Shown here: positions 1 to 15,826 of the stretch, piece by piece | How the letters are laid out: each line of letters opens with the position of its first letter | How positions within the stretch are numbered: position 1 is the first letter of the stretch | Source: a virus | Taxonomy: Duplodnaviria > Caudoviricetes | Virus record (IMG/VR): IMGVR_UViG_3300033066_002392 | Location: 5,121-69,120 of that record | Direction: 5' to 3' (one strand) | DNA: 64,000 nt | Notes under the pieces: model-generated | The model's input: the letters and a program-made list of their open reading frames with translations, nothing else | Databases searched by the model: none | Told to the model about the DNA's origin: nothing | Program-made: the position numbers and the translations under genes

Positions 1-1115
1 TCGGCCCAGCCGGCATTTCGCTGAGCCTCGTCCAGCCACGCCGTGCGGTTGTCGCCGCCCGGGAATGTGGTGCGGCGCGGGTCCTGGGGCGCCTCGCCGG
101 CGTACGTGTAGCCGCCGTACCTCTCGATCGTCTGGTAGGCCCGGCGCACGAGGCCCGAGTGCTCGCCGGTGAACGGGCGGCGGTGGCGGGCCGCCGTCCG
201 CCAGTCCTGGTAGGCGGGCAGGTCCTGGAGCTCGCGGAACCTTTTGCGGGCCTGCGCGGCGGCCGCCTCCACCTCGGCGCCGTGCTCGGCGTCCAGCTTC
301 CGCATCCGCGACTCGTAGACGTGCCTCCAGTAGCCGATCTTCTTGGCGGTCGCCTCTCCCCTGCCGGCCGAGGCCACCAGGTCGGCGCAGGCCGCCTTGA
401 AGGCCCTGGTGAGCTTGTCCTTCTCGCGGGTGGCGTGGGCCAGGGCCAGGCCCCGGGCGCGCATGGCGGCGGCCTCGATCTCCATCACGGACGCCAGGAA
501 CTTGCGGGCCGCCTCCCCGTCTGCCACCTCCTGGTGGCCCCCGCCGCCCCGCTTGATGAAGTCCTCCTTGGCCTGGGACATCCTCCGGCGGGCGTCGTTC
601 TCGCCCTCGATCTCCGCCATGGCGCGGCGCACGGCGGGGTCGGCGGACCACAGGCCGGTGCGCACCACCACCTCGGCCGTCTGCTCGAAGGTGAGCCGGC
701 GCAGGGGCGCGTGCCTCTCGCGCACGGCCGTCAGGGCCGAGACGAATGCCCGGCTCTGCAGGTATTTCTTGCCGAACTTTTGCTCCACCGCCTTCCGCCG
801 CCTCTGCACCTCCCCCGGCGTGGCGCCCCTGTCCTCGCCGGCCAGGCCGAGCTCCCCGATGGCCCGGTCGACGGCCGACGGCTCCGACTGCGGGGCGTCG
901 GCCAGCCGCCTCGCCTCCCTGATGATCTGCTCGTCGCTGAACTTCGCGAGCCACTTCCCCTTGTCGGTGCGCGGGCCCACGACGGCGGCCAGCACCTGGG
1001 CCCCGCTCATGCCCTGCCGCAGCGCGGCCTCGATGGCCGGGCGCCGGAAGATGCCCGTGCGCCAGGGCGGGGCGTGCAGGCGGGCGACGGTCTCGATGGC
1101 GGAGGCGAGGTTCAT
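1..1115 (-). CDS. Hypothetical protein, >371 aa, truncated by the window edge (absent from the ORF track)
   Basis: Manual translation from ATG at 1115 (MNLASAIETVARLHAPPWRTG...) is open to position 1, with GC3-rich codons; the + strand ORFs here are shadows. Confidence 0.75.
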   Translation of the reverse strand, partial: MNLASAIETVARLHAPPWRTGIFRRPAIEAALRQGMSGAQVLAAVVGPRTDKGKWLAKFSDEQIIREARRLADAPQSEPSAVDRAIGELGLAGEDRGATPGEVQRRRKAVEQKFGKKYLQSRAFVSALTAVRERHAPLRRLTFEQTAEVVVRTGLWSADPAVRRAMAEIEGENDARRRMSQAKEDFIKRGGGGHQEVADGEAARKFLASVMEIEAAAMRARGLALAHATREKDKLTRAFKAACADLVASAGRGEATAKKIGYWRHVYESRMRKLDAEHGAEVEAAAAQARKRFRELQDLPAYQDWRTAARHRRPFTGEHSGLVRRAYQTIERYGGYTYAGEAPQDPRRTTFPGGDNRTAWLDEAQRNAGWA

Positions 1116-1262
1116 GCGGTTTGACGCCGGGGAGGGGATTGGTGGTGAGGGCGGCCATCCTCCCCCGGCGCCCGACTAGGCTCAACCGGCGCCCCTTGCA
1201 CACATCTCTCGGCGCGGCCACCCTGGCCCCTCGTTCGCACCGCACCCCCACGCCGGGAATAC

Positions 1263-2696
1263 ATGCCAGGCCGCCTCACCCGCTTCGCCGACTGGCTCGC
1301 CGAGAAGGCGCTGCCGGCGCTCCTCCGCCCGCGGTGGGGCGCCCGCCGCGCCCTGGCCGAGTTCACGGGCACGGGCAACTCCGTGGGCCAGTGGACCAAC
1401 CAGTGGACGGAGTCGCGCTACCACCAGGTGCGCCACTTCAAGCACTGGGTCTACATCGCCGTCGACCGCGTCGCCACCGAGGTGGCGATGCACATGCCCA
1501 ACGTCTCCCTCCTCCACGAGGACGGCGGGAGCGACCCCACGCGGAAGTACCTGGGCCGTAGCGTCACCAACCGCGCCATCACGCCGCTGCAGTCGCACGA
1601 GCGCCTCGAGCCGGCCCGGCACAACCACCCCCTGTGCCGGCTGCTCCGCGACCCCAACGAGCCGGACACCAGCTACGACTTGTGGTACGAGACCACCATG
1701 TTCCTGCTCCTCACCGGGAGCGCGTACTGGTGGATCCCCCGCAACCCGCACACGCAGAAGCCCGCCGCCATCTGGGTGATGCCCTCGCACTGGGTCTACT
1801 CCCAGGCCAACGAGGACGGCTGGGTCGACAAGTACGAGATCCGCCCCGTCGAGGGCAACTACGTCCGGATGGTGATCCCCGCCGAGGACATGATTCACTT
1901 CCGGAAGAAGTCCCCCGTCTCCAAGCTCGACGGCTACTCGCCGCTCAACGCCGGGGCGCAGTGGGTGGACACCCTGGAGTCGATCGACCGCACCCGCTGG
2001 TTCTCCTTCAGGAACGGCATCTTCCCCGGCGTCTCCGTCGAGTTCGACCCGCAGGTGAAGCTCCCCGACGAGCAGGACCTGAACCGCATCGAGGCGCGCC
2101 TGATGTCGCGCTACGGCGGCGAGCACAACTCCAACCGGCCCATCATGATCCCCCCCGGCGCCAAGCTGCGGAAGATGCAGCTCTCCGCCGACGAGCTGGG
2201 CTTCTACGACTCGGCCAACCAGCTGCGCGACAACGTGCTGGCCAACTTCCACGTCCCCGGGCCCTGCGTGGGCGTGGTGAGCGACATGACGTTCGGCAGC
2301 CTGCGGGCCAGCATGGCGGGCCTGTACACGGGCGCCATCAACCCGCTCTTCCACTTCTACGGGCAGAACGTCACCGAGAAGCTGGCCCAGCCCCGCTACG
2401 ACCGCCGCCTGCGCGTCTGGTGGGAGGACCGGACGCCCGCCGACCCGGAGCTCCGGGAGACGTCGCTGATGACGGACCTGGCCTACGGCGCGAAGACCAT
2501 GAACGAGGTGCGGGCGCTGCGCGGCGACGAGCCGTACCCCCACGCCTGGGCGAACGAGCCCTGGATGCCCATGAACACGGTCCCCGTGTCCGTGGCGCTT
2601 GCGGGGCTTTCAGGCAAGGAGGGCGGCGGGGGCTCCCCCGGCGCCAACCGCGAGACGGTCACCGACCCCTCCAACCACCCCCGCCGCGAGGACTGA
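1263..2696 (+). CDS. Phage portal protein (HK97 family)
   Basis: Portal-like segments (DMIHFRKKSPVSKLDGYSPL, FSFRNGIFPG, ILANFHVP-like, TMNEVRALRG); lies directly upstream of protease and capsid. Confidence 0.9.
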   Translation: MPGRLTRFADWLAEKALPALLRPRWGARRALAEFTGTGNSVGQWTNQWTESRYHQVRHFKHWVYIAVDRVATEVAMHMPNVSLLHEDGGSDPTRKYLGRSVTNRAITPLQSHERLEPARHNHPLCRLLRDPNEPDTSYDLWYETTMFLLLTGSAYWWIPRNPHTQKPAAIWVMPSHWVYSQANEDGWVDKYEIRPVEGNYVRMVIPAEDMIHFRKKSPVSKLDGYSPLNAGAQWVDTLESIDRTRWFSFRNGIFPGVSVEFDPQVKLPDEQDLNRIEARLMSRYGGEHNSNRPIMIPPGAKLRKMQLSADELGFYDSANQLRDNVLANFHVPGPCVGVVSDMTFGSLRASMAGLYTGAINPLFHFYGQNVTEKLAQPRYDRRLRVWWEDRTPADPELRETSLMTDLAYGAKTMNEVRALRGDEPYPHAWANEPWMPMNTVPVSVALAGLSGKEGGGGSPGANRETVTDPSNHPRRED

Positions 2697-2697
2697 C

Positions 2698-5600
2698 GTG
2701 ACGACGGTGAAAGAATACTCGGCGGGCGACCTCTACGGGGCCGTCTCCCGCCGCTTCGACAGGCTCTCCGGCACCCTCGGCAACCCGCTCTCCGCCTCGA
2801 TGCGGAGGCTGGCGCTGCCCGCCGGGGACGGCCGCACCCTCACCCTCTCCAACCCCCCCGACGCGGGCACGGTGGACGTGGGCGACGGCCTGCTGGCCGT
2901 GGACGAAAAGACGATGTCGGCCGGCTTCGTGGTCTCCTCGACCCGGCGCGACCGCCACGGCGACGTGGTGGTGCCCGCGGGGTGCAAGGACTTCTTCGCC
3001 GACTACGAGGCCAACCCCGTCGTCTTCTTCGCCCACAAGAGCGACTGCCTCCCCATCGCCTCCGCCAGGGACGCCGCGGGCAAGGTGGCGATGTGGTTCT
3101 CCGAGGACAAGATAACCTCCCGCGCCTACTTCCACGGGAAGACGCGGGAGAGCGAGGAAGTCTTCTGCCTGGTGGCCGAGGGCCACCTGCGCGCGGCCAG
3201 CATCGGCTTCATCCCCGTCGAGGGGAAACTCATCCCCCCGGCGTCCGACGAGCCCGTCGACGACGACGGCAACGTCGACTTCGACTCCGGCGGCCTGGTG
3301 TTCACGAAGTGGCAGCTCCTGGAGTGGAGCGTCGTCCCCGTGCCCGCCAACGCCGACGCCCTGCGCTCCCGCCTGCAGTCGAGGAAAAGTCTTTCCCCCT
3401 CCCTCCGGAAGTCGCTGGAGCCCTTCGCGGCCCCCGCCCGCGGCGACCGCCCGCGGTTCACGATGCCCAAGCACGCGGGCCTGGCGGCGCAGGGGCGGCG
3501 CTGGAACCAGTCGCTGTCGAAGGCGTTCGACATCTCCCAGCAGAAGCTGAAGCCCGCCACGGCGTTCTACGGCCTGGCGTCGAAGTACCTCGGCTGCGAG
3601 GTGAAGCACATCTCCCACCGCTCCGCCGTCATCCCCTCTGCGAAGATGGGCTCCGTGCTCTCCGGCTGGCACGAGGCGGCCGCCCTGGACCACAAGTCGG
3701 TGGACGTCCGCAACATCACGCACGGCGGCACGGAGTGCCCGCCCTACTACGAGGCCATCCGGCTCAACTCCTCCCAGTCGAAGGAGTTCCTGGTGGAGGG
3801 CGCGGTCTTCTACGACGGCAAGTCGAAGTTCATCGCCGCCTTCCAGCCGGTGTGGTACGGACTCAGCGTCACCCTCTACTCGAAGCAGAGCGAGTCGGCC
3901 GACTCCTCCCTGGTGCTGGACAGGGCCTGGGAGCTGGCGGCGTCGAAGTACAACTTCCTCAAGGGCGAGGCCTTCTCCCTCTCCGGCGACTTCATCGGGA
4001 AGACCGGCGAGCAGTGGGAGGACCTGTTCCTCGAGGACAAGAACGTCAAGTCGGTTAAGCGCACCCTGCGGCTCCTCAACGAGAAGCAGGCGGACTTCGC
4101 CAACCGCGGCGCCATCTTCCTCGGGCCGCCCGGCACCGGCAAGACGCTCTCCGGGCGCATCATCCGCAACCAGGCCGACGCCACCTTCATCTGGGTCTCG
4201 GCCAAGGACTTCTACCGCGCCGGCGCCTTCGGCGGCATGTCGTACGCCTTCGAGCTCGCCAAGGAGCTGTCGCCCAGCGTCATCTTCTTCGAGGACGTCG
4301 ACAACTGGCTGGACAGCCACAGCGTGGACCTCCTCAAGAGCGAGATGGACGGCATCGCCCGCTACTCCGGCGTGTGGACGGTGCTCACCACAAACTACCC
4401 CGAGCGGCTGCCCAAGGCGCTCATCGACCGCCCCGGCCGCTTCCACGACGTCCTCTACTTCAAGCTGCCCGACGAGGCGGCCCGCAAGGGCATGCTCGCC
4501 AGGTGGCTGCCGGAGCTGAAGGGCCAGCCCCTCGCCGACGCCCTCAAGGCCACCAAGGGCTACAGCGGCGCCCACGTCTACGAGCTGTGCAAGTTCGTCA
4601 AGACGCTGCTGGAGCAGGAGGAGAAGTCCCTCGAGGCCGCGGTCACCTCCGCACTCAAGAAGATCGAGGAGCAGCGGGAGCTGATCGCCAGGCCGCCGCG
4701 CTTCGACAAGTCCCTCAGCCCCATGGTGGCCTCCTACGCGGGCCGCCGCAGTTTCAACATCCAACGGAAATCCATGCCCACCGACATAGGCGAAGCCCTC
4801 GAAAAACTCCTCGCCGACGACCTCACGAAGCCCCCCGTCCAGGACGCGGAAGACGCCGGGGGGAGTGAAGAGGGTGAGGGCGGCGTCGAGCCGCAGGCGA
4901 TCGTCTTCCACACCGACCGCTTCCACGAGGAGGCCGACGTCCGCCGGTGGCTGGAGGACAACGGCTACCCGGACGCCGAGGTGATGCCCGGCGGCGAGGG
5001 CGACGAGCCCTGGGTGGCCGTGCTGTTCCCGAGCGAGGAGTGCGAGGCCGACACCGCCGAGCGCAAGGAAATCGAGGACGGCGTCGAACTGGTGACCTGC
5101 ACCCGCGGCGAGAAGGAAGGCGACGGCGAGAGCGAACCCGAACCCGAATCCGGCGTGCCCGACGCCGGGGGAGAAGTGATGGCCGGCAAGGCGATGGACG
5201 AACTGCCCGATGGCGAGACCGCCGTGAAGCCAGGTGGGGAGTCCGACGACTCCATGAAGCCCTACGGCTGCCAGGTGCTGTGCACCCTGCAGGGGCACCT
5301 CGAGGCGACCGCTTCTTACCTCGAGTCGGCCGTCGGCCAGCTGGAGCAGGAGAAGGTCAAAAAGTGGCTCGGCAAGTACACCGAGCACCTGCAGAAGTAC
5401 GCCGACGACCTCGAGGAGTTCGCCTGCGGCGTCTACCCGGACCACTTCAAGGCGAAGGCCAAGAAGAAGAAGCCCGCCAAGGAGGAGCACCCCGAGCCCG
5501 ACGGCGACGAGGCCGTCGGCGACGGCGACGGGGACGCCGACGACAAGGGCAAGGGCAAGAAGTCAATCACCTCCCCCCGGCGTACCCCCCTCGCCAAGGG

Positions 5601-5871
5601 CGCCGTCGCCCGCAAGGACGTCGGCGTGCTCGAGGACACCGCGGAGTTCCTCAAGGAGCTGGCCACCGAGGACAACCTCAAGCGCTCCCAGAAGGCCGCC
5701 TGCCGCCAGCACGCCGGCGACATCGGCTCGCTGTGCCAGAAGTACTCCGCCCCCGAGGACGCCGGGGAGGAGGTGGCGACGGAGAAGTCGGCCGCCGAGG
5801 ACCCCGCCCTCCAGGTGGCCGTCGACCGCCTCCTCAACGCCTACTACGAGCTCACCGGGGAGGAAATCTAA
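2698..5871 (+). CDS. Prohead maturation protease fused to an AAA+ ATPase and an acidic/helical scaffold-like C-terminus
   Basis: N-terminal HK97 protease motifs (RDRHGDVV, NPVVFFAH, LRAASIGF, LLEWSVVPVPANADA); Walker A GPPGTGKT at 4123-4146; Walker B VIFFEDVD; SRH TTNYPERLPKALIDRPGRFH; GTG start just after the portal stop. Confidence 0.85.
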   Translation: MTTVKEYSAGDLYGAVSRRFDRLSGTLGNPLSASMRRLALPAGDGRTLTLSNPPDAGTVDVGDGLLAVDEKTMSAGFVVSSTRRDRHGDVVVPAGCKDFFADYEANPVVFFAHKSDCLPIASARDAAGKVAMWFSEDKITSRAYFHGKTRESEEVFCLVAEGHLRAASIGFIPVEGKLIPPASDEPVDDDGNVDFDSGGLVFTKWQLLEWSVVPVPANADALRSRLQSRKSLSPSLRKSLEPFAAPARGDRPRFTMPKHAGLAAQGRRWNQSLSKAFDISQQKLKPATAFYGLASKYLGCEVKHISHRSAVIPSAKMGSVLSGWHEAAALDHKSVDVRNITHGGTECPPYYEAIRLNSSQSKEFLVEGAVFYDGKSKFIAAFQPVWYGLSVTLYSKQSESADSSLVLDRAWELAASKYNFLKGEAFSLSGDFIGKTGEQWEDLFLEDKNVKSVKRTLRLLNEKQADFANRGAIFLGPPGTGKTLSGRIIRNQADATFIWVSAKDFYRAGAFGGMSYAFELAKELSPSVIFFEDVDNWLDSHSVDLLKSEMDGIARYSGVWTVLTTNYPERLPKALIDRPGRFHDVLYFKLPDEAARKGMLARWLPELKGQPLADALKATKGYSGAHVYELCKFVKTLLEQEEKSLEAAVTSALKKIEEQRELIARPPRFDKSLSPMVASYAGRRSFNIQRKSMPTDIGEALEKLLADDLTKPPVQDAEDAGGSEEGEGGVEPQAIVFHTDRFHEEADVRRWLEDNGYPDAEVMPGGEGDEPWVAVLFPSEECEADTAERKEIEDGVELVTCTRGEKEGDGESEPEPESGVPDAGGEVMAGKAMDELPDGETAVKPGGESDDSMKPYGCQVLCTLQGHLEATASYLESAVGQLEQEKVKKWLGKYTEHLQKYADDLEEFACGVYPDHFKAKAKKKKPAKEEHPEPDGDEAVGDGDGDADDKGKGKKSITSPRRTPLAKGAVARKDVGVLEDTAEFLKELATEDNLKRSQKAACRQHAGDIGSLCQKYSAPEDAGEEVATEKSAAEDPALQVAVDRLLNAYYELTGEEI

Positions 5872-6135
5872 GTGGCCAAGTCGAAGCCCTCTGCCACCTC
5901 CCCGGCGTCCAAGGTTGAACTCCCCGCCGCGCCCGTTGCGGCGGAGGTGCCGGCCCCGGCCTGCTGGAACTGCCGGCACTGGCTCGCCGTCCGCGACGCC
6001 TGCCACCCGGGCGTCGGCCACTGCAGGCGCTACCCGCCCTCGGTGCTCACGCCCGACTTGACACTACACGGGCCCAAAACTACCTTCCCCGTCACCCACC
6101 AGTCCGCCTCCTGCGGCGAGCACGCGCCGGCGTGA
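5872..6135 (+). CDS. Small Cys-rich phage protein (CxxC...CRRYPP...CGE)
   Basis: ORF fills the gap between protease and capsid; Cys pattern suggests metal binding. Confidence 0.6.
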   Translation: MAKSKPSATSPASKVELPAAPVAAEVPAPACWNCRHWLAVRDACHPGVGHCRRYPPSVLTPDLTLHGPKTTFPVTHQSASCGEHAPA

Positions 6136-6182
6136 CATCCGCCTCACCTCCCCGTCCAACACCCTCCCCCAGTAAGAGCCGA

Positions 6183-7559
6183 ATGTCCACCCCCACCAAT
6201 CTCGCCGACAAGGTCGAAAAGCTCGAAGGCGCCCTCACCAAGCTGGCCACCTCGGGTGACGCCGTGCGCAAGGGCGTCCCCGCCGTCCGCAAGGGCGAGG
6301 ACCCGTTCACCTCCCGCGGCTACAGCTTCTGCAAGCTGTTCCAGCTGATGAGCGGCAAGGTGGACAAGGAGAGCGCCCGCGTCGAGTTCGACACGCACAA
6401 CGAGCTGCAGGCGAACCTCTACGACCGCCACGGCTTCGTCAAGGGCGCCAGCAACTCCATCCTCGCCCCGTTCTGCACCGACTACATGCCGCAGGACAGC
6501 GAGTCCGACCGCAAGTTCGCGCTCGACGTCCGCGCCCGGGTGAAGGCCGGCGTGGCGGGCCTGGACCCCGAGGCCGTCCGCAAGATGGCCGGGGCCGTCA
6601 ACAAGACGCTCAGCTGGCAGGACGAGACGGCGCTCGGCGCCCTGGTCTCCCCGCCGATGTTCGGCGAGTTGATTGACATCCTCCGCAACAACGAAGTGCT
6701 CCTGCGGGCCGGCGCCTCCAGCATCGGCATGCCGCCCAACGGCCGCATCGTCTTCCCCCGCCAGACGGGCGTCGCCACCGCCTACCACGTCGGCGAGAGC
6801 GCGGCGATCACCGCCAGCGAGCCGACGACCGGCGACGTGACGCTGCAGGCCAAGAAGCTGGCCACGCTGGTGAAGGCGCCCAACGAACTCTTCCGCTACG
6901 CCTCGGTCTCCGTCGAAGCGCTCCTGCGCATGGACATGGCCAAGGTGATGGCGCTGAAGATGGACAACCAGCTCATCGAGGGCGTCGGCAGCTCGGTCGC
7001 CCCGCGCGGCCTCATCACCTACTCCGGCCTCACCACCCACACCTCCGCCGGCACCCCCGCCGACGCCGACAGCGGCTACCCGCTGCAGCCGGAGGACGTG
7101 TACACGATGATCGCCAAGGTGGAGGAGCAGAACGCCGTCTTCAAGACCTGGGTGATGCGGCCCCTGATGTACTCCTACATCTTCAACCGCCGGGCCGACG
7201 CCATCACGGCGGGCGACGGCAAGGGCGCGTACCTCTTCAACGTGTGGCGCGAGCTCGGCCTCAACGCCGGCCTCGACCGCGACGGCACCGGCAACCTGGC
7301 CGGCTACCCCGTGCTGAAGACGACCAACATCTCCAAGACCCGCACCCGCGGCTCGGGGAGCACGTTCACCTACATCCTCGGCGGCGACTTCAGCGACTAC
7401 ATGATCGCCATGAGCCCCGTGGTGGAGTTCGCGATGACGCAGCAGGGCGACACCGCCTTCCAGCAGGACCAGACCTGGCTGCGGGCGATCCTCAGCTACG
7501 ACGGCGCCCCGCGCCGGGAAGCGTCCTTCTTGATCTGCGACGCCTTGTTGACCTCGTGA
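6183..7559 (+). CDS. Major capsid protein (HK97 fold)
   Basis: GALVSPPMFGELIDILRN, AYHVGESAAITAS, VTLQAKKLATLVK, LAGYPVLKT, ILGGDFSDY, AFQQDQTWLR. Confidence 0.92.
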   Translation: MSTPTNLADKVEKLEGALTKLATSGDAVRKGVPAVRKGEDPFTSRGYSFCKLFQLMSGKVDKESARVEFDTHNELQANLYDRHGFVKGASNSILAPFCTDYMPQDSESDRKFALDVRARVKAGVAGLDPEAVRKMAGAVNKTLSWQDETALGALVSPPMFGELIDILRNNEVLLRAGASSIGMPPNGRIVFPRQTGVATAYHVGESAAITASEPTTGDVTLQAKKLATLVKAPNELFRYASVSVEALLRMDMAKVMALKMDNQLIEGVGSSVAPRGLITYSGLTTHTSAGTPADADSGYPLQPEDVYTMIAKVEEQNAVFKTWVMRPLMYSYIFNRRADAITAGDGKGAYLFNVWRELGLNAGLDRDGTGNLAGYPVLKTTNISKTRTRGSGSTFTYILGGDFSDYMIAMSPVVEFAMTQQGDTAFQQDQTWLRAILSYDGAPRREASFLICDALLTS

Positions 7560-7587
7560 GAGTCTTTTAGTCTCTAATTGAGGTTGG

Positions 7588-7627
7588 TTGCCACGCACCC
7601 TCCAATTCGGTATGATACTATAGTATC
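7588..7627 (+). promoter_or_regulatory. Sigma70-type promoter TTGCCA-17-TATGAT overlapped by the palindrome GATACTATAGTATC
   Basis: -35 at 7588-7593, -10 at 7611-7616, palindrome at 7614-7627; AT-rich; directly upstream of the HNH gene. Confidence 0.65.
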
Positions 7628-7636
7628 TTATTCAAC

Positions 7637-8254
7637 GTGGAGGGTGTCGTGGGAAGCAGCGATCAGCAGGTAATCGGACAACGCTTCGGGAAGTTGGTGG
7701 TCGTCGCGAAGGCCTGGTCAGACAGATGGCTTTGCCGATGCGACTGTGGGAACGAGAAGGCGATTCGGCTCGTGTATCTGAAGAAGAACATGACGAAAAG
7801 CTGCGGCTGCCTCCGAGCCAAGCATGGCCTTTCTCATCTCCCCGAGTTCAATGTCTGGAACATGATGCAGCAGCGGTGTAACAACCCGAATTACAACCGC
7901 TACTTGGACTACGGCGGCCGTGGCATCAAGGTGTGCGAGAGGTGGCTGGGGCCGAAAGGGTTCGAGCATTTTATTAGCGACCTCGGACGACGGCCCTCGC
8001 CTCAGCACAAGCTGGAGCGAATCGACAACGACGGCGACTACGCGCCCAGCAACTGCTGCTGGGTTACCCAGGCTGAGCAGTCAAGGAACCGACGCAACAA
8101 CAAGTGGGTCACCTACAACGGCGAGACACTCGTTGTCAAAGACTGGGCCACAAAGCTCGGCATGGACGTGATGACCCTGAAGTACCGTCTGAAGCACTGG
8201 GGCCTCGAGAGGGCGATGACCACGCCCCTTGCGCCCAACTCAAGGCGAAAATAA
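7637..8254 (+). CDS. Free-standing HNH-type homing endonuclease
   Basis: QRFGKLVV, CRCDCG, KSCGC, RCNNPN..YGGRGIKVCERW, ERIDNDGDYAPSNCCW; lower GC than flanking genes. Confidence 0.85.
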   Translation: MEGVVGSSDQQVIGQRFGKLVVVAKAWSDRWLCRCDCGNEKAIRLVYLKKNMTKSCGCLRAKHGLSHLPEFNVWNMMQQRCNNPNYNRYLDYGGRGIKVCERWLGPKGFEHFISDLGRRPSPQHKLERIDNDGDYAPSNCCWVTQAEQSRNRRNNKWVTYNGETLVVKDWATKLGMDVMTLKYRLKHWGLERAMTTPLAPNSRRK

Positions 8255-8294
8255 CCTCCCCCTGTTCACCTCCCCTTCGGACCCCACCTGACGC

Positions 8295-8741: not shown

Positions 8742-8760
8742 TCCCGGCCGCAACCACTTC

Positions 8761-8815
8761 GCCCCGCACGGCGCGCCACGCCCTCCCCTCCCCGGCGCGC
8801 CTGCGGGGCTTTTCT
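8761..8815 (+). terminator. Rho-independent terminator
   Basis: GCCCCGCA..GGCGCGCC / GGCGCGCC.TGCGGGGC stem followed by TTTTCT. Confidence 0.7.
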
Positions 8816-8843
8816 CTCGCCCCGCCACCCGGTACCGCACGAC

Positions 8844-11819
8844 GTGAAGAACCCCCAGCTGCTCGACGCCATCGCCACCCTCCTGATGCGGCAGTATGCC
8901 GGCGGGGGCGGGGGGCCTCTGAGGCCTTCGATGTACGGCAAGGTCGGGGTCAACATCGGGCCCGTGTCGTACTTCGACACCCACCTGGTGACCCCCGACC
9001 AGATGTGGGCCGGCTACCCCTACGAATTCAGGCGACGGCAGACCACGCTGACCGCAGACCACGTTTCCGGCCAGGGGTGGGTCGTCGCGGATTCGACGTT
9101 CAGTGAGGCGCCCTCGCCCCGGCGCACGGGCACCGTCCGCACCGTGGCCGTGCGCGTGCGGGACGCGGCGACCTCCACCACGCTGACGGGCACGGTGTTC
9201 TCCGTCGTGGGGTCGAATGTCTGGTTCCCCTCCGGGTCGATCACCAACGACCGGGCGGTCGCCTCGGGGACGCTGGTGGACAGCACCGACGCCAACGTCT
9301 TCACCAACAACACCAGTTTCCTTGCCATCGGCGCGACGTTCGTGGACGGGCTCGGCCGCGACACCGGATACCCGTCCATCCCGACGGGGCAGGTCTTCTC
9401 CGGGCCCAACGCGCAGCTGCGCCGCCTGCCGGCCGGGGTCTACACGCCGCTGGCCCGGGGGACCGGCGACGTTCAGTTCGCCTTCACCTACGTTGACGGC
9501 ACGACTTCCAGCAACTTCACCGTCACCGTCACCAACGGCGTGTGCTCCCCGACGACGGTCACGGCGGCGCAGGGCATCACGACGATCACCGTGCGGCACC
9601 GGCCGGGGGACGCCACCGCCCCGCTGTACGACTTCATGCTGATCTGCCCCGACCGCGCCGGCCGGGCCGACAACTTCGTCGCCAGCTACGCGGCGAACAT
9701 TGCCGACCCGTACTATTTTCTCCCCCACCCCGACTACGTCGCCTCCCTCAGCACGTTCCGCGTGCTGCGATTCATGGACTGGCAGCCGACCAACTCCAGC
9801 ACCGTCCGGGAGTGGGCCGACCGCACCCTGCCGGGGCGCCGGCCCGGGAAGAACGGGGCCAGTTACGAGGACGCGGTCAAAGTCGCGAACGCGGTCGGGG
9901 CCGACCCGTGGTTCTGCATCCCGCACGAAGCCTCCGACGACTTCGTGACGCAATTCGCGACGATGCTGAAGGCCAACCTGGGGTCCTCCAGGAAGGTGTA
10001 CTTCGAGTACACCAACGAGACGTGGAACAGCATCTTCAACCAGTACGCCTACTGCGTCGCGCAGGGATCAAACACCTACAGCCCCTACGCGCTGTCGTCG
10101 TTGACCTACTCCAGCGGCAGCGGCAAGTGTACGGCCACCCTGGCGAACACGACCTGCGCGACGTTGGGTTTTTCCAACGGCGACACGGTCGTAATTTGCA
10201 ACGCGACGGACGCCAATTACAACGGCGAGTACACGATTTCCGGCGTGTCCGGTTCGTCGTTCGACTACACGCCCGGCTCCCCGCCGGCCCTGGCGGCCGC
10301 GACCGCGCAGCCGGTGACGGCACTCATGGCGTTCGAGACGAGCGACACCACGGCCAAGACGATCTCCGGCATCGTCTGGACGCTCACCAGCACGTCCGCC
10401 GACGCGGTCGTCACCACCTCGGCCAGCCACGGCTACGCGGCCGGCGACATGTTCCTGATCTCGGGGTGTTCGGACGCGGGGTTCAACGGGCTCCACTCGG
10501 CGGTGTCCGTCACCACTTCCACAATCACCTTCCGGTTCAGCGGGACGGGCGGGACGCGGCTGCTCCCGGCGATCTCCGCGGCCTCGACGACCGTCAACGC
10601 TTCCGCCGCGGCCGGGCAGACGATGCGCGTCCTCAGGGTCGCGGCGAACGCGGCCACCGGCAACGTCAAAAACGCCTTCGAGATGAACCGCCGCTGGTAC
10701 GGCCGGCGGCTGGGCCAGATCCAGCTACTCTTCCAGTCCGTATTCTCCGGGCAACTGTCCCGGCTCGCCCCCGTCGTGGCCTGGCAGGCGGCGGGCAACA
10801 GCACCGGCAACGACGCCTTCACGATGGGCGAATACCTTGCGGCGGTGGGCGGCTCGCTGCCCGCCGGCCCCGACTTCTGCTGGGCGATCGCGCCCTACTT
10901 CGGCGGCGTGGCCATGTCGGATACCGCCATCGTCGGGCCCCGCAAGACCCCCACGGCGTTCGGCTACTCGGCGGGGACCGTAACCGTCACACTGAGCGCC
11001 CACGGCTACACGACCGGCGACACGGTCCAGATCGCCAACGTCGGGCCCGTGGGCGCCGGCGGGGACGCCTACAACGGTCTGTGGACGATCACGGTTTCCG
11101 ACGCGAACACCTTCACCTACACGCCCGTCGGCACCCCCACGACGACGAGCGGGCTGTCCGCGACTTACACTTCGCCCGGCATGATGGCGATCAAGTCATC
11201 GCCCTACATGCGTGAACTGGTGACGGTGTCCAAGGTCGGCACGACGGTGACTTGCACCAGCTACAATCACGGACTGACGACGGGGGAAATCGTCCGACTG
11301 TGCAACTTCGCGCAGGACGATTACAAGGTGACGGCGACCGTGACCGTTACCGACGCGCACACGTTCACCTTCCAGACCGCGTCAACGCTCACCCCGTCCG
11401 CCAACTCTTCGGCGGGCCGGATGTGGGTGCTGAAGCCCGGCGCGGTCGATCAGATTTTCACTGATACTGAGCCTTACATCACGACCACGATCCCCGGCTG
11501 GCTGGCGTACCACCGGACGTGGGCGGCGAACTACGGCGCCCGGGTGGTGTGTTACGAGGGCGGGCCCCACAGTCTGCCCGCGACCGCGGTGCAAAATATT
11601 GTCCCCCTCAGCGAGGCTTACATCCAGTCCAACCACGACGCCCGGATGGGCGCGGTACTGGACCGCTGGTTCGACCTGCTGGACAGCTACGGGGTCAGCC
11701 TGTGCTGTTACTTCAACCACTGCATGGAAGCCTCGAAAACCGGGACGTGGGGCCTGCTCGACTACCAGTACCAGGACCGGTCGATCACCCCGAAGTTCAC
11801 CAGCGCGGCCCGCAGGTAG
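8844..11819 (+). CDS. 991-aa putative clan GH-A glycoside hydrolase-like protein with four inserted beta-repeat modules
   Basis: RFMDW, ADPWFCIPH, EYTNETWN and VCYEGGPH motifs; four repeats of the type HGYTTGDTVQI..YNG.W.ITV...TFTY. Confidence 0.6.
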   Translation: MKNPQLLDAIATLLMRQYAGGGGGPLRPSMYGKVGVNIGPVSYFDTHLVTPDQMWAGYPYEFRRRQTTLTADHVSGQGWVVADSTFSEAPSPRRTGTVRTVAVRVRDAATSTTLTGTVFSVVGSNVWFPSGSITNDRAVASGTLVDSTDANVFTNNTSFLAIGATFVDGLGRDTGYPSIPTGQVFSGPNAQLRRLPAGVYTPLARGTGDVQFAFTYVDGTTSSNFTVTVTNGVCSPTTVTAAQGITTITVRHRPGDATAPLYDFMLICPDRAGRADNFVASYAANIADPYYFLPHPDYVASLSTFRVLRFMDWQPTNSSTVREWADRTLPGRRPGKNGASYEDAVKVANAVGADPWFCIPHEASDDFVTQFATMLKANLGSSRKVYFEYTNETWNSIFNQYAYCVAQGSNTYSPYALSSLTYSSGSGKCTATLANTTCATLGFSNGDTVVICNATDANYNGEYTISGVSGSSFDYTPGSPPALAAATAQPVTALMAFETSDTTAKTISGIVWTLTSTSADAVVTTSASHGYAAGDMFLISGCSDAGFNGLHSAVSVTTSTITFRFSGTGGTRLLPAISAASTTVNASAAAGQTMRVLRVAANAATGNVKNAFEMNRRWYGRRLGQIQLLFQSVFSGQLSRLAPVVAWQAAGNSTGNDAFTMGEYLAAVGGSLPAGPDFCWAIAPYFGGVAMSDTAIVGPRKTPTAFGYSAGTVTVTLSAHGYTTGDTVQIANVGPVGAGGDAYNGLWTITVSDANTFTYTPVGTPTTTSGLSATYTSPGMMAIKSSPYMRELVTVSKVGTTVTCTSYNHGLTTGEIVRLCNFAQDDYKVTATVTVTDAHTFTFQTASTLTPSANSSAGRMWVLKPGAVDQIFTDTEPYITTTIPGWLAYHRTWAANYGARVVCYEGGPHSLPATAVQNIVPLSEAYIQSNHDARMGAVLDRWFDLLDSYGVSLCCYFNHCMEASKTGTWGLLDYQYQDRSITPKFTSAARR

Positions 11820-11861
11820 CCGCCGCCCCCACCCACCCACCCCTCCCCGGCGTAAAGAGTA

Positions 11862-12290
11862 ATGGCCTCCACGATCTATAACTCCTTCAAGAGAGACATT
11901 GCCAACGGCAGCATCGACCTCGACACGGACACCATCAAGGTGATGCTGACGTCGGGCTCCTACGCCGCCAACGCGGACACCCACACCAAGAGGTCGGACG
12001 TCACCAACGAGGTGACGGGCACCAACTGGTCGGCCGGCGGGGTGGCGCTCGCCAACAAGACGGTGACCGCGGACAACACCAACGACCGCGGCGTCTTCGA
12101 CGCCGACGACGTCTCCGTCTCCACCGCCACCTTCACCGGCGCCACCCAGGCCGTCCTCTACAAGAGCCGCGGCGGGGCCTCCAGCGCCGACGAGCTCATC
12201 GCCTGCATCGACCTCGGCGGCACCTTCTCGCCGACGGCGGGCACCTTCACGATAACGTGGTCGTCGAACGGCATCCTCACCCTCAGCTAG
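11862..12290 (+). CDS. Conserved phage virion structural protein
   Basis: IDLDTDTIKVML..EVTGTNWSAGG pattern recalled from phage minor structural proteins. Confidence 0.6.
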   Translation: MASTIYNSFKRDIANGSIDLDTDTIKVMLTSGSYAANADTHTKRSDVTNEVTGTNWSAGGVALANKTVTADNTNDRGVFDADDVSVSTATFTGATQAVLYKSRGGASSADELIACIDLGGTFSPTAGTFTITWSSNGILTLS

Positions 12291-12297
12291 GCGGACA

Positions 12298-12840
12298 GTG
12301 CCCATGCCCCTTACCGCGGCCGCACTGGCCGACGAACTCGCCGGCGACCCCGAGTCGCTGGGCTACGCCGCGCTCGTGGCCGCCGGCAACGACGCCGGGG
12401 TTGCGGCGCTGCTCAACGCCCCGCGCACGCCGGGCCTGCGGGCGGAGTCCTGGATCACCGAGGTGATCCTCTACCGCCTGCTCGGCCCGGCCGCGGCGGA
12501 GGCCTTCCTCCAGACCCTGGACGGCTCCGCCGGCCACCAGGCCGTTCCGGCCGGCGTCCGGGCCATCATCGCCCGCGTGCGCGGGTGGATCGCCCAGGCG
12601 GCCGGGGTCGGCAACGGCGTCGACGCGGGGAACGCCTACACGCAGGAGACGCTCAAGGCCTTGCCCGGGGTCTTCTCCCAGGCGGGGTACCTGGTCGGGC
12701 AGGACCTGGCCGACTTCTCCGCCGCCGTCGACGCGGTCTGCGCCTACGGCGTCAGGCCGTGGTCGCGGGCGGAGGTCGTCGGCGGCGAAGGCGCCGTGGT
12801 CGGCCACGGGGACGTGGCGCGCGCTCTGGGGAGGGGGTAA
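12298..12840 (+). CDS. Hypothetical protein, probably virion-associated
   Basis: ORF tiles between neighbouring genes, with phage-like codon use. Confidence 0.6.
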   Translation: MPMPLTAAALADELAGDPESLGYAALVAAGNDAGVAALLNAPRTPGLRAESWITEVILYRLLGPAAAEAFLQTLDGSAGHQAVPAGVRAIIARVRGWIAQAAGVGNGVDAGNAYTQETLKALPGVFSQAGYLVGQDLADFSAAVDAVCAYGVRPWSRAEVVGGEGAVVGHGDVARALGRG

Positions 12841-12843
12841 GGC

Positions 12844-13377
12844 GTGGCACTTCCCGACTACCAGAAGGTGGAACTGGGCACCCCGATCGTCTGGGGCGAG
12901 TCCGGCGGCTCCGGCGTGACGAACACGCTCAGCCTCGACGCGCTGGCCAGCACCTCCGGGCGCATGGGCGCCTCCGTGGACCTGGGGGCCACCTTCGAGG
13001 ACGAGTACATCCTGGAGGTGCGCGTCGAGACGGGCACCGCGCCCACGGCTGGCACGACCGTCGAAGTGTATTTGGCGTGGTCAACGGATGGCGCCAACTG
13101 GCCGGGCAAGGTGACGGGCAGTGACGCCGCCTACCCGACGACGGTGGCGAACAACAAGCTCCAACTCGGGCCGCCCGCCATCGTTCTGAACGCCACGAAC
13201 GACGGCAACACGACGCTGTCACAGAACGGCGTGACCATCCGCCCGGCCGGGCGGTACGTCGCCCCGGTGGTGGTCAACCTCCTGGGGCAGGCGTTCCGCG
13301 ACGAGGCGACCGCGAGCAACAACGACTCCCGGGTCGTGCTGACGCCGCGCCGGCTCCTGGTTGCTGACACCGCGTGA
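12844..13377 (+). CDS. Hypothetical beta-rich virion protein
   Basis: ORF tiling; Thr/Gly/Val-rich beta-sandwich-like composition. Confidence 0.6.
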   Translation: MALPDYQKVELGTPIVWGESGGSGVTNTLSLDALASTSGRMGASVDLGATFEDEYILEVRVETGTAPTAGTTVEVYLAWSTDGANWPGKVTGSDAAYPTTVANNKLQLGPPAIVLNATNDGNTTLSQNGVTIRPAGRYVAPVVVNLLGQAFRDEATASNNDSRVVLTPRRLLVADTA

Positions 13378-13391
13378 CCGGAGGCTGGTAG

Positions 13392-14834
13392 GTGCCGATC
13401 GACCTCCTGAACCCGGTGGCCCCGCACCCGCTCAACGTCGGGCTGGTCGGCTGGTGGCTGCCGCTGGCCAACGGCTACGGCGGCTCGTACCTCTACGACC
13501 TGCTCGGCCTGAATCACGGGACGCTGACGAACGGCCCCACCTGGGCCACGGGCCCTTACGGCTTCGGCGGACTGGTCCTGGACGGGACCAACGACTACGC
13601 CCCGCTCCCGTCATCTTTCCCGGCGATCACCGGGAACCTTACCTGCGCGTGTTGGTTCAAAACCTCCGCCAACACCCGACACATTTTCGGCGGCTACGAC
13701 CTCTCTTCGCCGTTCAGCGGGTGGGGATTCGGAATCGGCCTCGGCACCCTGTCGAACAAATTGACATTCTGGAGCAGGTCCTCCGGCACGCCAGGGTGGG
13801 TGGCCAGTGTCGCGTCGGTAAACACCGGGGCGTGGGTGCACGGGGCCGTTTCCCTGTCGGGAACCTCGGCCAGTTTCTACGTCAATGGCGTTTTGGATGT
13901 GGTCCGCACCGTGCAGGTGCCCGCAAGCTACTCCGGCACGAAGTCCCTTTTCGCCAGCACCACCGGAACCAATTCGTTTTCCGGAAGTGCAACGGACATC
14001 AGGATATACAGCCGGGCGGTCACCGACGGAGAGGCGTGGCAACTCTACGACCAGGGCGTACGAGGCAACCCGGACCTCCTGCGGCAGTACCGGCGGCGGG
14101 CCGTCCTGCTGCGGGACTCGGGGGGCGGGGCTCCTGTCACGGCCACGCCCGCCGCCGTAACCGCCGCCTGGGCCCCGCAGGCGACTTCCTGCTCCGCCGG
14201 CTCGGCCTCTCCCCCGGCGTCTACGAACGCGCTGTGGGCCGCCCAGGCCGCCTCGCCCTCGGCGGGTGCGTCCGCCTCCCCCACTGTGGTGAGCGCCTCC
14301 TGGGCCCTGCAGGGGGCCTCCGCGGCCACGTCCGGCGCCTCGGCTTCGCCCGCCGCCGTTGACGCAGTGTGGGCCGTACAGGCGCCCTCGGTGAGTGCGG
14401 GTGGCAGTAGCAGTGCCTCCCCGGCCTCCTCCTCCTCCCCGGCGTCTTCCAACGCCACGTGGGCGGTGCAAACGCCCTCGGCGAGCGCGGGCAGTAGTAG
14501 CACGGCCGCGCCGGCCGTCCTGCAACTCACCTCCGCGGCCGGCAGCGCCTCGGCGTCCGCCGGCACCCGCGCCGCCCCCGCGGCGGCGAACGCCGCCTGG
14601 GCCGCGCAAGCCGCATCCGCCTCGACTGCCGACCCGACGACCGCCACGCCAGGGAGGGTGAGCCTCGCCTGGGCCGCGGTGGCGCCCGCATCGGTGTCGT
14701 CGCTGGCGATACCCCGCGACGCCGTCACGCGGTTGGCGATACCGAGGAGTGCGGTTACAAGTGTGCGGGTACGGCGGGGCACCTCCCGGCGGATACACGT
14801 CAGGGCGACCCGCACGCGGGTGATCCACCTATGA
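13392..14834 (+). CDS. LamG/concanavalin-like domain followed by about 8 Ala/Ser-rich repeats of about 24 aa
   Basis: GLVGWWLP..HGTLTNGPTW, LTCACWFK, WVHGAV, ASFYVNG, FSGSATDIRIYSRA; repeat A(S/T)PAxxxAxWAxQxxSxSAG. Confidence 0.75.
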   Translation: MPIDLLNPVAPHPLNVGLVGWWLPLANGYGGSYLYDLLGLNHGTLTNGPTWATGPYGFGGLVLDGTNDYAPLPSSFPAITGNLTCACWFKTSANTRHIFGGYDLSSPFSGWGFGIGLGTLSNKLTFWSRSSGTPGWVASVASVNTGAWVHGAVSLSGTSASFYVNGVLDVVRTVQVPASYSGTKSLFASTTGTNSFSGSATDIRIYSRAVTDGEAWQLYDQGVRGNPDLLRQYRRRAVLLRDSGGGAPVTATPAAVTAAWAPQATSCSAGSASPPASTNALWAAQAASPSAGASASPTVVSASWALQGASAATSGASASPAAVDAVWAVQAPSVSAGGSSSASPASSSSPASSNATWAVQTPSASAGSSSTAAPAVLQLTSAAGSASASAGTRAAPAAANAAWAAQAASASTADPTTATPGRVSLAWAAVAPASVSSLAIPRDAVTRLAIPRSAVTSVRVRRGTSRRIHVRATRTRVIHL

Positions 14835-15154
14835 GCGCCTTCGCCGCACTCTCCTACCACCGGGCCTCCGACCAGCTCGTCGCCTTCGACTTCGAGGACG
14901 ACGTCACCGGCTGGACGTTCAAGTTCTACCTGCTGGCGTCCCCGGACTCGGCCACCACCCTCCTCGAGTTGACTTCCGGCGCCGGGGTCACCGTGACGGA
15001 CGCGGCCGGCGGCCTGGTGGAGGTCTACCTCAGCTCCGCCAACCTCGACCGCGCCCCCGACCGCTACTACTGGGCCCTCGCCCGCACCGACAGCGGGGCG
15101 AAGGACGTCAAGGCCGAGGGCACCCTCACCGTCCTGCCACCCAAGGTGTTCTAA
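14831..15154 (+). CDS. Small Ig-like/BppU-N-like structural protein
   Basis: VTVTDAAGGLVEVYL...YYWAL...AEGTLTV pattern. Confidence 0.45.
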   Translation: MSAFAALSYHRASDQLVAFDFEDDVTGWTFKFYLLASPDSATTLLELTSGAGVTVTDAAGGLVEVYLSSANLDRAPDRYYWALARTDSGAKDVKAEGTLTVLPPKVF

Positions 15155-15157
15155 GGC

Positions 15158-15826
15158 GTGTTCCTCGTCGACCTCACCGCCTTGAAGCTCATCCTCGGCT
15201 ACGCCCCCACGTCCACGACGTACGACGCCGAGCTGCAGATGTACGGCGAGGCCGCCGAGGCCGCCGTCGAAAAGTACTGCAACCGCCGCTTCGAGTCGCG
15301 GGACTACGTCGAATACTACTCCGGCAACAACACCCAGCGCATCGCCCTGCGGCAGACGCCCGTCACCGCGGTGACGGCGGTGCACCTGGACTCCTACGGC
15401 TACTACGGCGCCAACCCCGACTCCCCCTTCGGCGCCACCACCCTCCTCTCCCCCGGCGTGGACTACGTCCTGGACGAGGACGCCGGGGGCGTGTCGAAGT
15501 CCGGCGTCCTGATTCGCATCGGCACCGTGTGGCCCGTGCTCAACCGCGTGCTGCCCAACAGCCGCCTCGCCCCCGAGATCGGCCCCGCGGTTGGCAACGT
15601 CAAGGTGGAGTACACCGCCGGCTACGCCGAGGCCCCGGCCGACCTGAAGATGGCCACCGCCATGGTCGCCGTCAACATGCGCCAGATCGCCCGCCGGGGA
15701 GGGGACAAGGTGAGGCAGGAGAAGATCGGCGACTACGCCTACACCCTCTTCGACCGCCTCGTCGGCGCCCCCGAGCTGGGCTCCGTCCGCGCCACCCTCT
15801 CCTCCTACAAGGAGTACGGCTGGTGA
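15158..15826 (+). CDS. Head-tail connector protein (gp6/gp15-like)
   Basis: LKLILG..YDAEL..AAEAAVEKYCNRRF, VKVEYTAGY..PADLKMA. Confidence 0.8.
   Translation: MFLVDLTALKLILGYAPTSTTYDAELQMYGEAAEAAVEKYCNRRFESRDYVEYYSGNNTQRIALRQTPVTAVTAVHLDSYGYYGANPDSPFGATTLLSPGVDYVLDEDAGGVSKSGVLIRIGTVWPVLNRVLPNSRLAPEIGPAVGNVKVEYTAGYAEAPADLKMATAMVAVNMRQIARRGGDKVRQEKIGDYAYTLFDRLVGAPELGSVRATLSSYKEYGW

Follow-up and report, generated by a model that had tools for sequence, protein, structure and literature searches.

Why should a phage build an ATPase into the protease that matures its capsid? We address this question here for a 64,000-nucleotide stretch of viral DNA (the window), bases 5121–69120 of the 69,120-bp IMG/VR virus record IMGVR_UViG_3300033066_002392 (Caudoviricetes; G+C about 69%), in which one gene, hereafter the fusion gene, runs from an HK97-type prohead protease through an AAA ATPase unit into a long acidic tail. 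Assembly and maturation of HK97-like capsids are the textbook example of energy-independent self-organisation, with ATP coming in, on the usual view, at the terminase step only. A strongly conserved ATPase that is wired into the maturation protease, and sometimes directly into the major capsid protein (MCP), points the other way. The answer that we favour, tentatively, is that the gene product may act as a capsid-tethered, ATP-dependent chaperone or remodeller for head proteins. An original prediction, made from the sequence alone, had described the gene as a prohead protease fused to an AAA unfoldase and had offered three possible roles, as a self-contained unfoldase-protease, as an assembly chaperone or as an ATPase injected into the host.

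An intact ATPase within a prohead protease

The uninterrupted frame spans positions 2599–5871 on the plus strand. The GTG at 2698, with the portal stop codon (2694–2696) one base earlier, is the likely start of the gene, since the N-termini of close homologs align from that position. The gene occupies the normal place of a protease/scaffold gene, the interval between portal and MCP. In run X1, which may be the record's own sample, a 9781-nt Logan contig matches window positions 2050–6600 letter for letter, and in a second sample of the same study small contigs span the 5′ junction of the ATPase segment. The Logan contigs and the open frame thus rule out, to the extent that contigs can, both a chimeric assembly and an overlooked stop codon, the two artefacts foreseen in the original prediction. 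Two apparent joints in run X2 were disregarded, their sides being only 21 letters long.

The N-terminal part of the protein is matched by the PHROG family phrog_80, 'head maturation protease' (residues 82–221, E 4.7e-11), and also by NF045541 (E 6e-7) and TIGR01543 (E 1.2e-3), both under their curated cut-offs. In the Pfam search, PF04586 is not reported for the fusion protein at E<0.01; it is precomputed for many homologs and is also detected in P0063, P0119 and P0021. The predicted catalytic residues are His113 (codon 3034–3036, in NP..FFAH) and Ser168 (codon 3199–3201, in S-I-G-F), which are invariant in 14 relatives and kept in at least 80–90% of 210 sequences, and the conserved motifs of the domain are DRxGD, NP..H...PI, S.GF and LE.S.V.VP.N..A. 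Profile matches, catalytic residues and gene position all identify, at the level of sequence, an HK97/S78-type prohead protease.

What is conserved family-wide in the remainder is a core of two domains, an N-domain followed by an AAA domain (residues ~262–667), with 40–58% identity across hundreds of proteins. The AlphaFold model of residues 250–700 has a mean predicted local distance difference test score (pLDDT) of 90.6. Just ahead of the AAA domain the N-domain carries a near-invariant hairpin motif, NFLKGEAFSLSGEF, which here reads ...SLSGDF (residues 419–432). The AAA domain itself is matched by PF00004 (residues 473–589, E 2e-17), and its best sequence match in the PDB is Cdc48 D2 (E 3e-31), with p97 D2, AFG2, VAT, YME1 and FtsH also among the best. 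It has Walker A GPPGTGKT (residues 476–483, window 4123–4146), Walker B VIFFED (residues 528–533, window 4279–4296), sensor-1 N566, and a second region of homology (T564–D584, window 4387–4449) in which R578 and R581 lie in DRPGRF. Walker A, Walker B, sensor-1 and both arginines are visible in the alignment to Cdc48 D1 and D2 and are invariant or near-invariant in 89–144 homologs. The segment GYSGAH (residues 621–626), kept in the family, aligns with GFSGAD/GYVGAD of Cdc48. These motifs assign the ATPase to the classical AAA clade (Cdc48/FtsH/PAN/Vps4 type), with GYSGAH standing, on the alignment, in place of a sensor-2 arginine.

The anatomy given in the original prediction thus stands in its single open frame, its HK97-type maturation protease, its intact AAA module with GPPGTGKT, FFEDVD and an RPGRF-containing second region of homology, and its acidic region and helical tail. 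The roughly 200 residues that it had set aside as an unknown fold are indeed a separate middle domain; they are not a linker, and appear in the model as the N-domain of a two-domain ATPase unit.

Closest structural relatives and the question of unfolding

The structure model points to YjoB and Bcs1 as the closest structural relatives. In Foldseek, the top match is YjoB of Bacillus subtilis (7W42, E 9e-19), and a series of Bcs1 structures comes next, every one of these matches extending over about 400 columns. With VIA, YjoB aligns over 336 residues (model 37–409, Z 20.4, root-mean-square deviation 7.4 Å) and Bcs1 over 349 (Z 18.7), whereas all other AAA proteins align over about 235 residues, i.e. 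the AAA domain alone, so that both domains are covered only by YjoB and Bcs1. The Walker B motif agrees with this placement. E532 and D533, both invariant in 89 sequences, align to the D and E of Cdc48, and YjoB and Bcs1 have been singled out as the exceptions within the classical AAA clade, with ED where the others have DE (PMC9565160). In the ESM Atlas, the top cluster is labelled 'ATPase YjoB family', and many viral clusters of 400–470 aa are listed.

YjoB (7W42/7W46) has a chamber and works as a holdase under the control of ATP (PMC9565160), and it shares with the phage unit the order of an alpha+beta N-domain, a hairpin and a classical AAA domain. Its S8–S9 hairpin, with the central pore loop, sits where the NFLKGEAFSLSGEF hairpin does, a correspondence by position only. 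Sequence identity is about 18–20%, and there is no sequence-level match between the N-domains. YjoB is also free-standing, cytoplasmic and found in Bacilli, whereas the phage unit is embedded in a protease of the structural module. Mitochondrial Bcs1 (6SH3, 6UKP, 9GSN) likewise shares the two-domain alignment and the ED Walker B. The phage unit, on the other hand, is fused to a protease and lacks the transmembrane anchor; its N-domain is internal to a soluble polypeptide, and Pfam gives no BCS1_N match at E<0.01. We thus do not regard it as a Bcs1 ortholog and describe it as Bcs1/YjoB-like.

These relatives bear on whether the fusion could be a self-contained ATP-dependent protease, the main idea of the original prediction, in which an AAA ring would unfold or extract scaffold and delta-domain segments for the linked protease within the prohead. 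Lon and FtsH also join an ATPase covalently to a protease, and in the phage family the two occur on one polypeptide in two orders, the permuted one, AAA then protease, being that of FtsH and Lon. The classical-clade motifs are intact, and one aromatic residue close to pore loop 1, F505, is retained. The canonical aromatic-hydrophobic-Gly pattern of that loop, however, is absent: the segment reads D504-F505-x-x-x-G509, is 2–3 residues shorter than in Cdc48, and has tip residues (506–508) that are only 30–40% conserved. It is thus closer to the short, Phe-containing loop of YjoB (F-T-S) than to those of threading unfoldases, and the closest structures, YjoB and Bcs1, are chambered chaperones or translocases that act on folded proteins. 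Furthermore, the protease fold is S78 rather than the S16 or M41 of Lon and FtsH, with no Lon or M41 profile match in Pfam; S78 proteases are not gatekept chambered proteases, and no sign of a proteolytic chamber under the ring is seen. HK97-type maturation works without ATP, and sister phages, which dispense with the ATPase, need no more than the protease to mature the same capsid. We therefore consider an ATP-dependent protease unlikely, and the label 'unfoldase' in the original prediction is not supported; on the comparative evidence, a chaperone linked to assembly fares better than an unfoldase-protease of the Lon kind.

Two domain orders and fusion to the capsid protein

The same architecture is common in metagenomes. 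An exhaustive search of representatives returned 412 cluster representatives at E<1e-30. Among 210 fetched sequences, 187 have the protease ahead of the core and 10 the reverse order, while 10 consist of the core only, several of these probably being fragments or split calls, and 3 are without the core. The representative library includes a few core-only entries (463–553 aa), which may also be fragments. No shorter stand-alone relatives of the N-domain scored, although the word index may miss them. In a search for loci by generic AAA patterns, only 6 of 47 loci, among the matches listed, were true family members. The homologs are always located in head modules, and MCP homologs share contigs with homologs of the fusion.

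Most of the 10 permuted forms run on into the MCP. In P0063, P0098, P0102, P0109 and P0118, and also in P0135 and P0181, the N-domain and AAA domain are followed by an S78 protease and then by the MCP, in a polypeptide of about 1100 aa. The triple fusion P0063 (L053:2699-6001) is the sole MCP gene seen in its locus. That the core is attached to head proteins in both domain orders is, at the level of gene architecture, strong evidence for a functional link between them.

In these triple fusions about 790 residues precede the MCP domain in every subunit, so that one core is produced for each MCP. By our own estimate this material would need about 36 MDa, against a capacity of at most about 30 MDa for a T=7 shell. 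Either the core does its work and departs ahead of DNA packaging, or less of it is produced. If the full-length protein is the only product of translation, the extra residues would not fit, and the implication is a start codon within the gene, cleavage at an early stage or a capsid larger than T=7. Since it cannot all stay in a DNA-filled head, the triple fusions argue for a role before packaging.

The core equals the MCP in conservation and exceeds the protease. In the same pairs of phages, identity is 54–58% for the core, 51–61% for the MCP and 25–63% for the protease. One relative, P0018, carries a class-1 intein (residues ~477–902) exactly in the Walker A loop (GPPG, then C...HN, then TGKT), and such a P-loop site is typical of conserved and functionally important motifs.

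A cassette gained and lost among close relatives

The cassette that holds the core is accessory and patchily distributed among ten related phages. Against the phage of P0037 (L054), blastn aligns window positions 1069–3468 at 83% and 4810–7541 at 77% and leaves the interval between them unaligned, the cassette of 1341 nt here corresponding to 105 nt there. Relatives without the core are P0037 (636 aa), P0122 (614 aa) and P0154 (713 aa). The proteases of P0037 and P0122 are 86% and 84% identical to that of the fusion protein, their tails about 50–63%, and the MCPs of the cassette-less sister phages are 82–83% identical. The short forms are each represented by five contigs from several samples, with the order portal, protease-tail, small open reading frame (ORF) and MCP; tblastn finds the core nowhere else on these contigs, which are partial. 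The phages that come next in MCP identity (64% and 61%) have short forms too, of 591 and 597 aa, and those at 51–61% (P0003, P0004, P0006, P0007) have long ones. On the MCP tree of the ten phages, three changes between presence and absence are needed, of which well-supported branches force at least two. This tree pairs both short forms together (97/94), and the protease tree pairs the fusion protein with the short-form P0037 (94/90). The cassette has thus been gained or lost repeatedly. The idea in the original prediction that homologs should keep the fusion with sound Walker motifs accordingly fares in two ways: the motifs are intact and the fusion recurs in hundreds of proteins, while the closest sister phages are without the ATPase unit.

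A patchy distribution, with at least two to three gains or losses among ten phages, is also what would be expected of a neutral or selfish passenger that spreads by recombination among protease genes and is functionless or decaying. Such a passenger would, on the other hand, hardly keep its catalytic motifs invariant over hundreds of lineages, and the identity of about 50% over 400 residues speaks for strong purifying selection. Frequent disrupted copies of the core are not seen in the alignments, and even the intein in P0018 preserves the P-loop. The cassette ends have no nuclease, intein or transposase features, and we regard a mere passenger as highly improbable. An intein or homing-element reading of the cassette was rejected likewise, there being no splicing or nuclease motifs at its ends.

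The tail, the flanking motifs and the possibility of packaged cargo

The tail is probably a scaffold-like, capsid-targeting part. The fusion protein ends in LTGEEI and is the sole ORF of the window with an end of this type; T1053 and G1054 are invariant in 14 relatives, and many proteins with the protease ahead of the core share this kind of C-terminus, the strict form of the motif occurring in 64 of 210 homologs versus a background of 1.7%. This motif belongs to the carrier protein and not to the cassette, since short forms without the cassette have it too. By analogy with the tail of the HK97 protease, it may bind the capsid protein, and in the triple fusions a covalently attached MCP stands in its place. 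Five other relatives (P0012, P0023, P0024, P0029 and P0030) end in 2–4 DnaJ-type CxxCxGxG zinc-finger repeats instead of the usual C-terminal motif.

A second set of short motifs, KSL[SE]P, flanks the core. In a six-frame translation of the whole window the pattern has 3 matches, all in the fusion gene, two before the core and one after it, and it also occurs in short-form relatives. The similarity of the two flanks scores 39, compared with a shuffle mean of 24 ± 4.8, and is reached by 3 of 500 shuffles. HK97 cuts its own capsid protein before S-L-G. The flanks may be either the footprint of an insertion or a pair of candidate protease sites.

Candidate cleavage sites on both sides of an optional enzyme raise the possibility that the ATPase is packaged cargo. 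The protease and tail would load it into the prohead, self-cleavage would free an ATPase of about 48 kDa, and this would remain in the head until it is ejected with the DNA, to act at an early stage in the host, for instance on a defence system or by remodelling a host complex. Phages are known to package large enzymes, such as the P1 Dar proteins, the N4 vRNAP and the T4 internal proteins, the last bearing a targeting leader that a protease removes. The KSL[SE]P motifs around the cassette, a C-terminal motif that is the carrier's own, and a cassette that is optional and patchy in close relatives, as is typical of host-interaction genes, all fit this scheme. Its difficulties are, first, that injected counter-defence proteins usually diverge fast, whereas the core keeps 45–58% identity across phages in which the remaining head proteins show equal or greater divergence; second, that one core per capsid subunit, as in the core-protease-MCP fusions, is by the above estimate too much for a DNA-filled head; and third, that a folded ring ATPase must unfold to pass through the tail. 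We thus consider packaged cargo rather unlikely, though more probable than the ATP-dependent protease.

A proposed capsid-tethered chaperone

We favour a chaperone because of the likeness to YjoB and Bcs1, the conservation at the level of the MCP, the lasting attachment of the core to protease and MCP, and the triple fusions with one core per MCP. The place of the gene in the head module, the ATP-regulated holdase activity of YjoB and the head-related role proposed for jumbo-phage BCS1 orthologs (PMC7824862) point the same way, and the P-loop intein of P0018 and the DnaJ-type fingers of some homologs are further hints. In the mechanism that we propose, the tail, through its ...LTGEEI end, would tether the entire polypeptide to the MCP, on or within the prohead as it assembles. 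The ATPase units would build chambered rings of six or seven members, like those of YjoB and Bcs1, and the rings would spend ATP on holding, remodelling or releasing folded head proteins (MCP or scaffold segments), acting as a phage-encoded, capsid-directed chaperone. The protease would later dismantle the assembly, possibly at the KSL[SE]P sites on either side of the cassette. Since sister phages without the core make the same capsid, the helper would be a facultative one, comparable to phage-encoded chaperonins and co-chaperonins. The tethering by the tail, the formation of rings, the chaperone role and the cleavage sites are all steps that we infer.

Several observations weigh against this chaperone. 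First of all, the likeness is less clear for the N-domain by itself. In Foldseek, Bcs1 chains rank first for it, with E 2e-3 and a probability of 0.97–0.99, and in VIA the best matches are unrelated alpha+beta domains (Z 6.5), with Bcs1 (6ukp) at Z 4.9 over 108 residues; phmmer against the PDB finds no match at E<=10. Since the N-domain alone has no significant fold match, the kinship with YjoB and Bcs1 is carried by the two-domain alignment, the ED motif and the rank order. Second, the nearest sisters lack the cassette, which is therefore not required for the assembly of this type of capsid. Third, patchy accessory genes of phages are often host-interaction genes, which favours the injected cargo.

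A bolder version of the chaperone proposal seems to us doubtful, namely that an MCP-tethered, Bcs1-like ring ATPase, borne on a mobile cassette, runs a so far undescribed ATP-dependent step of capsid morphogenesis. Such a step might template or release capsomers, or it might carry proteins in the folded state, be they scaffold or protease fragments or cargo, through the prohead shell or out of it.

Relation to known systems

The protease itself resembles the HK97 gp4-type proteases (S78, PF04586, TIGR01543) in its His and Ser motifs, in its position between portal and MCP and in a presumed capsid-binding C-terminal extension. That group includes long protease-scaffold proteins and protease-MCP fusions (NF045541), and P0037 and P0122 (614–636 aa) are ordinary members. 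No described member, however, carries an ATPase, whereas here 447 codons stand between protease and tail. Literature searches combining prohead protease or Peptidase_S78 with AAA, and Bcs1 with bacteriophage and capsid, found no description of the fusion, in line with the original prediction, which knew of none. Stand-alone BCS1 orthologs do occur in jumbo phages, and a role in head packaging has been proposed for them, in which they might bring folded proteins into the head (Iyer et al. 2021, PMC7824862); a protease fusion is not mentioned in that paper, where 'prohead protease' occurs 0 times.

Among cultured phages (INPHARED), only the AAA part finds matches, at below 33% identity, and no record covers the fusion. 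A strict pattern for the N-domain, which matched 13 IMG/VR contigs, found no prophage copy in 185,579 species genomes. The single match among those genomes, within the Cas9 (Csx12) gene of a Halioglobus metagenome-assembled genome, is a chance one. New here are the clear-cut difference between sister phages in carrying the cassette, the triple fusions in permuted order, ED in the Walker B motif, the conserved motif at the C-terminus, and the KSL[SE]P copies on either side of the core.

Many uncultured phages may add an ATP-driven chaperone or remodelling step to head assembly, or else load an enzyme into the head by means of the protease. The near-identical natural pairs of phages with and without the cassette make this question directly testable. 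The YjoB/Bcs1-like ATPases, which are widespread in phages and little understood, would through this module gain a functional context for the first time.

Genomic neighbourhood

The features of the fusion gene and of its immediate neighbours are collected in Table 1.

Table 1. Positions of the fusion gene, its parts and the adjacent head genes in the window
Feature	Positions	Strand	Details
Portal protein gene, directly upstream	1263–2696	+	PF04860 E 3e-42; phrog_2662
Whole fusion gene: protease, ATPase cassette, tail	2698–5871	+	1057 codons, 115.5 kDa; identical in Logan contig
HK97/S78-type prohead serine protease domain (predicted)	2878–3372	+	residues ~61–225; phrog_80
Basic linker 1	3373–3498	+	residues 226–267; two KSL[SE]P motifs at residues 230, 238
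447-codon insertion/deletion cassette	3469–4809	+	residues ~258–704; blastn and protein alignments
Alpha+beta N-domain of ATPase unit (model)	3499–4035	+	residues 268–446; AlphaFold2 pLDDT 92; 31–46% conserved, 88 homologs
Classical-clade AAA domain (predicted)	4036–4695	+	residues 447–666; PF00004, PDB matches, invariant columns
Third KSLSP motif	4708–4722	+	residues 671–675, just past ATPase core
Acidic, partly helical C-terminal tail	4810–5868	+	residues 705–1057, 38 kDa, net charge -45, isoelectric point 4.4; common to short forms
C-terminal motif ...LLNAYYELTGEEI-COOH	5830–5868	+	amphipathic helix, then [TRK]-G-[RKE]-[VIL]-x
Cys-rich 87-codon ORF between fusion gene and MCP gene	5872–6135	+	only weak phrog_15838 match
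HK97-fold MCP gene	6132–7559	+	PF05065 E 2.5e-38; TIGR01554

The small ORF that follows the fusion gene has a Cys/His-rich pattern (CxxC ... C ... HC ... SCGEH), and related phages hold ORFs of 86–91 codons in the same slot. On the other side of the portal gene, and divergent from it, lies a gene of 1310 codons (L060:2303-6235:-), which covers window positions 1–1115 on the minus strand and continues to base 2303 of the record. It has no Pfam match, and relatives hold genes for 1109–1450 aa in the same place. No terminase was recognised beside the portal gene.

Directly after the capsid gene, an HNH endonuclease gene (7637–8254, plus strand; phrog_374, E 5e-63) is not at this place in the sister phage L054, where window positions 7541–8294 are represented by about 100 nt. 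A mobile insertion of the homing type is the probable explanation. A second mosaic swap lies in the head-to-tail junction region, where window positions 8742–15223 (about 6.5 kb, including a 991-codon gene at 8844–11819) face about 1.2 kb in L054, holding a GDSL-lipase-like gene. In the phage of P0010 (L049:13188-16894), and likewise in that of P0076, two tandem genes of the Phage_capsid family and then a Methyltransf_24 gene stand downstream of the protease-ATPase gene.

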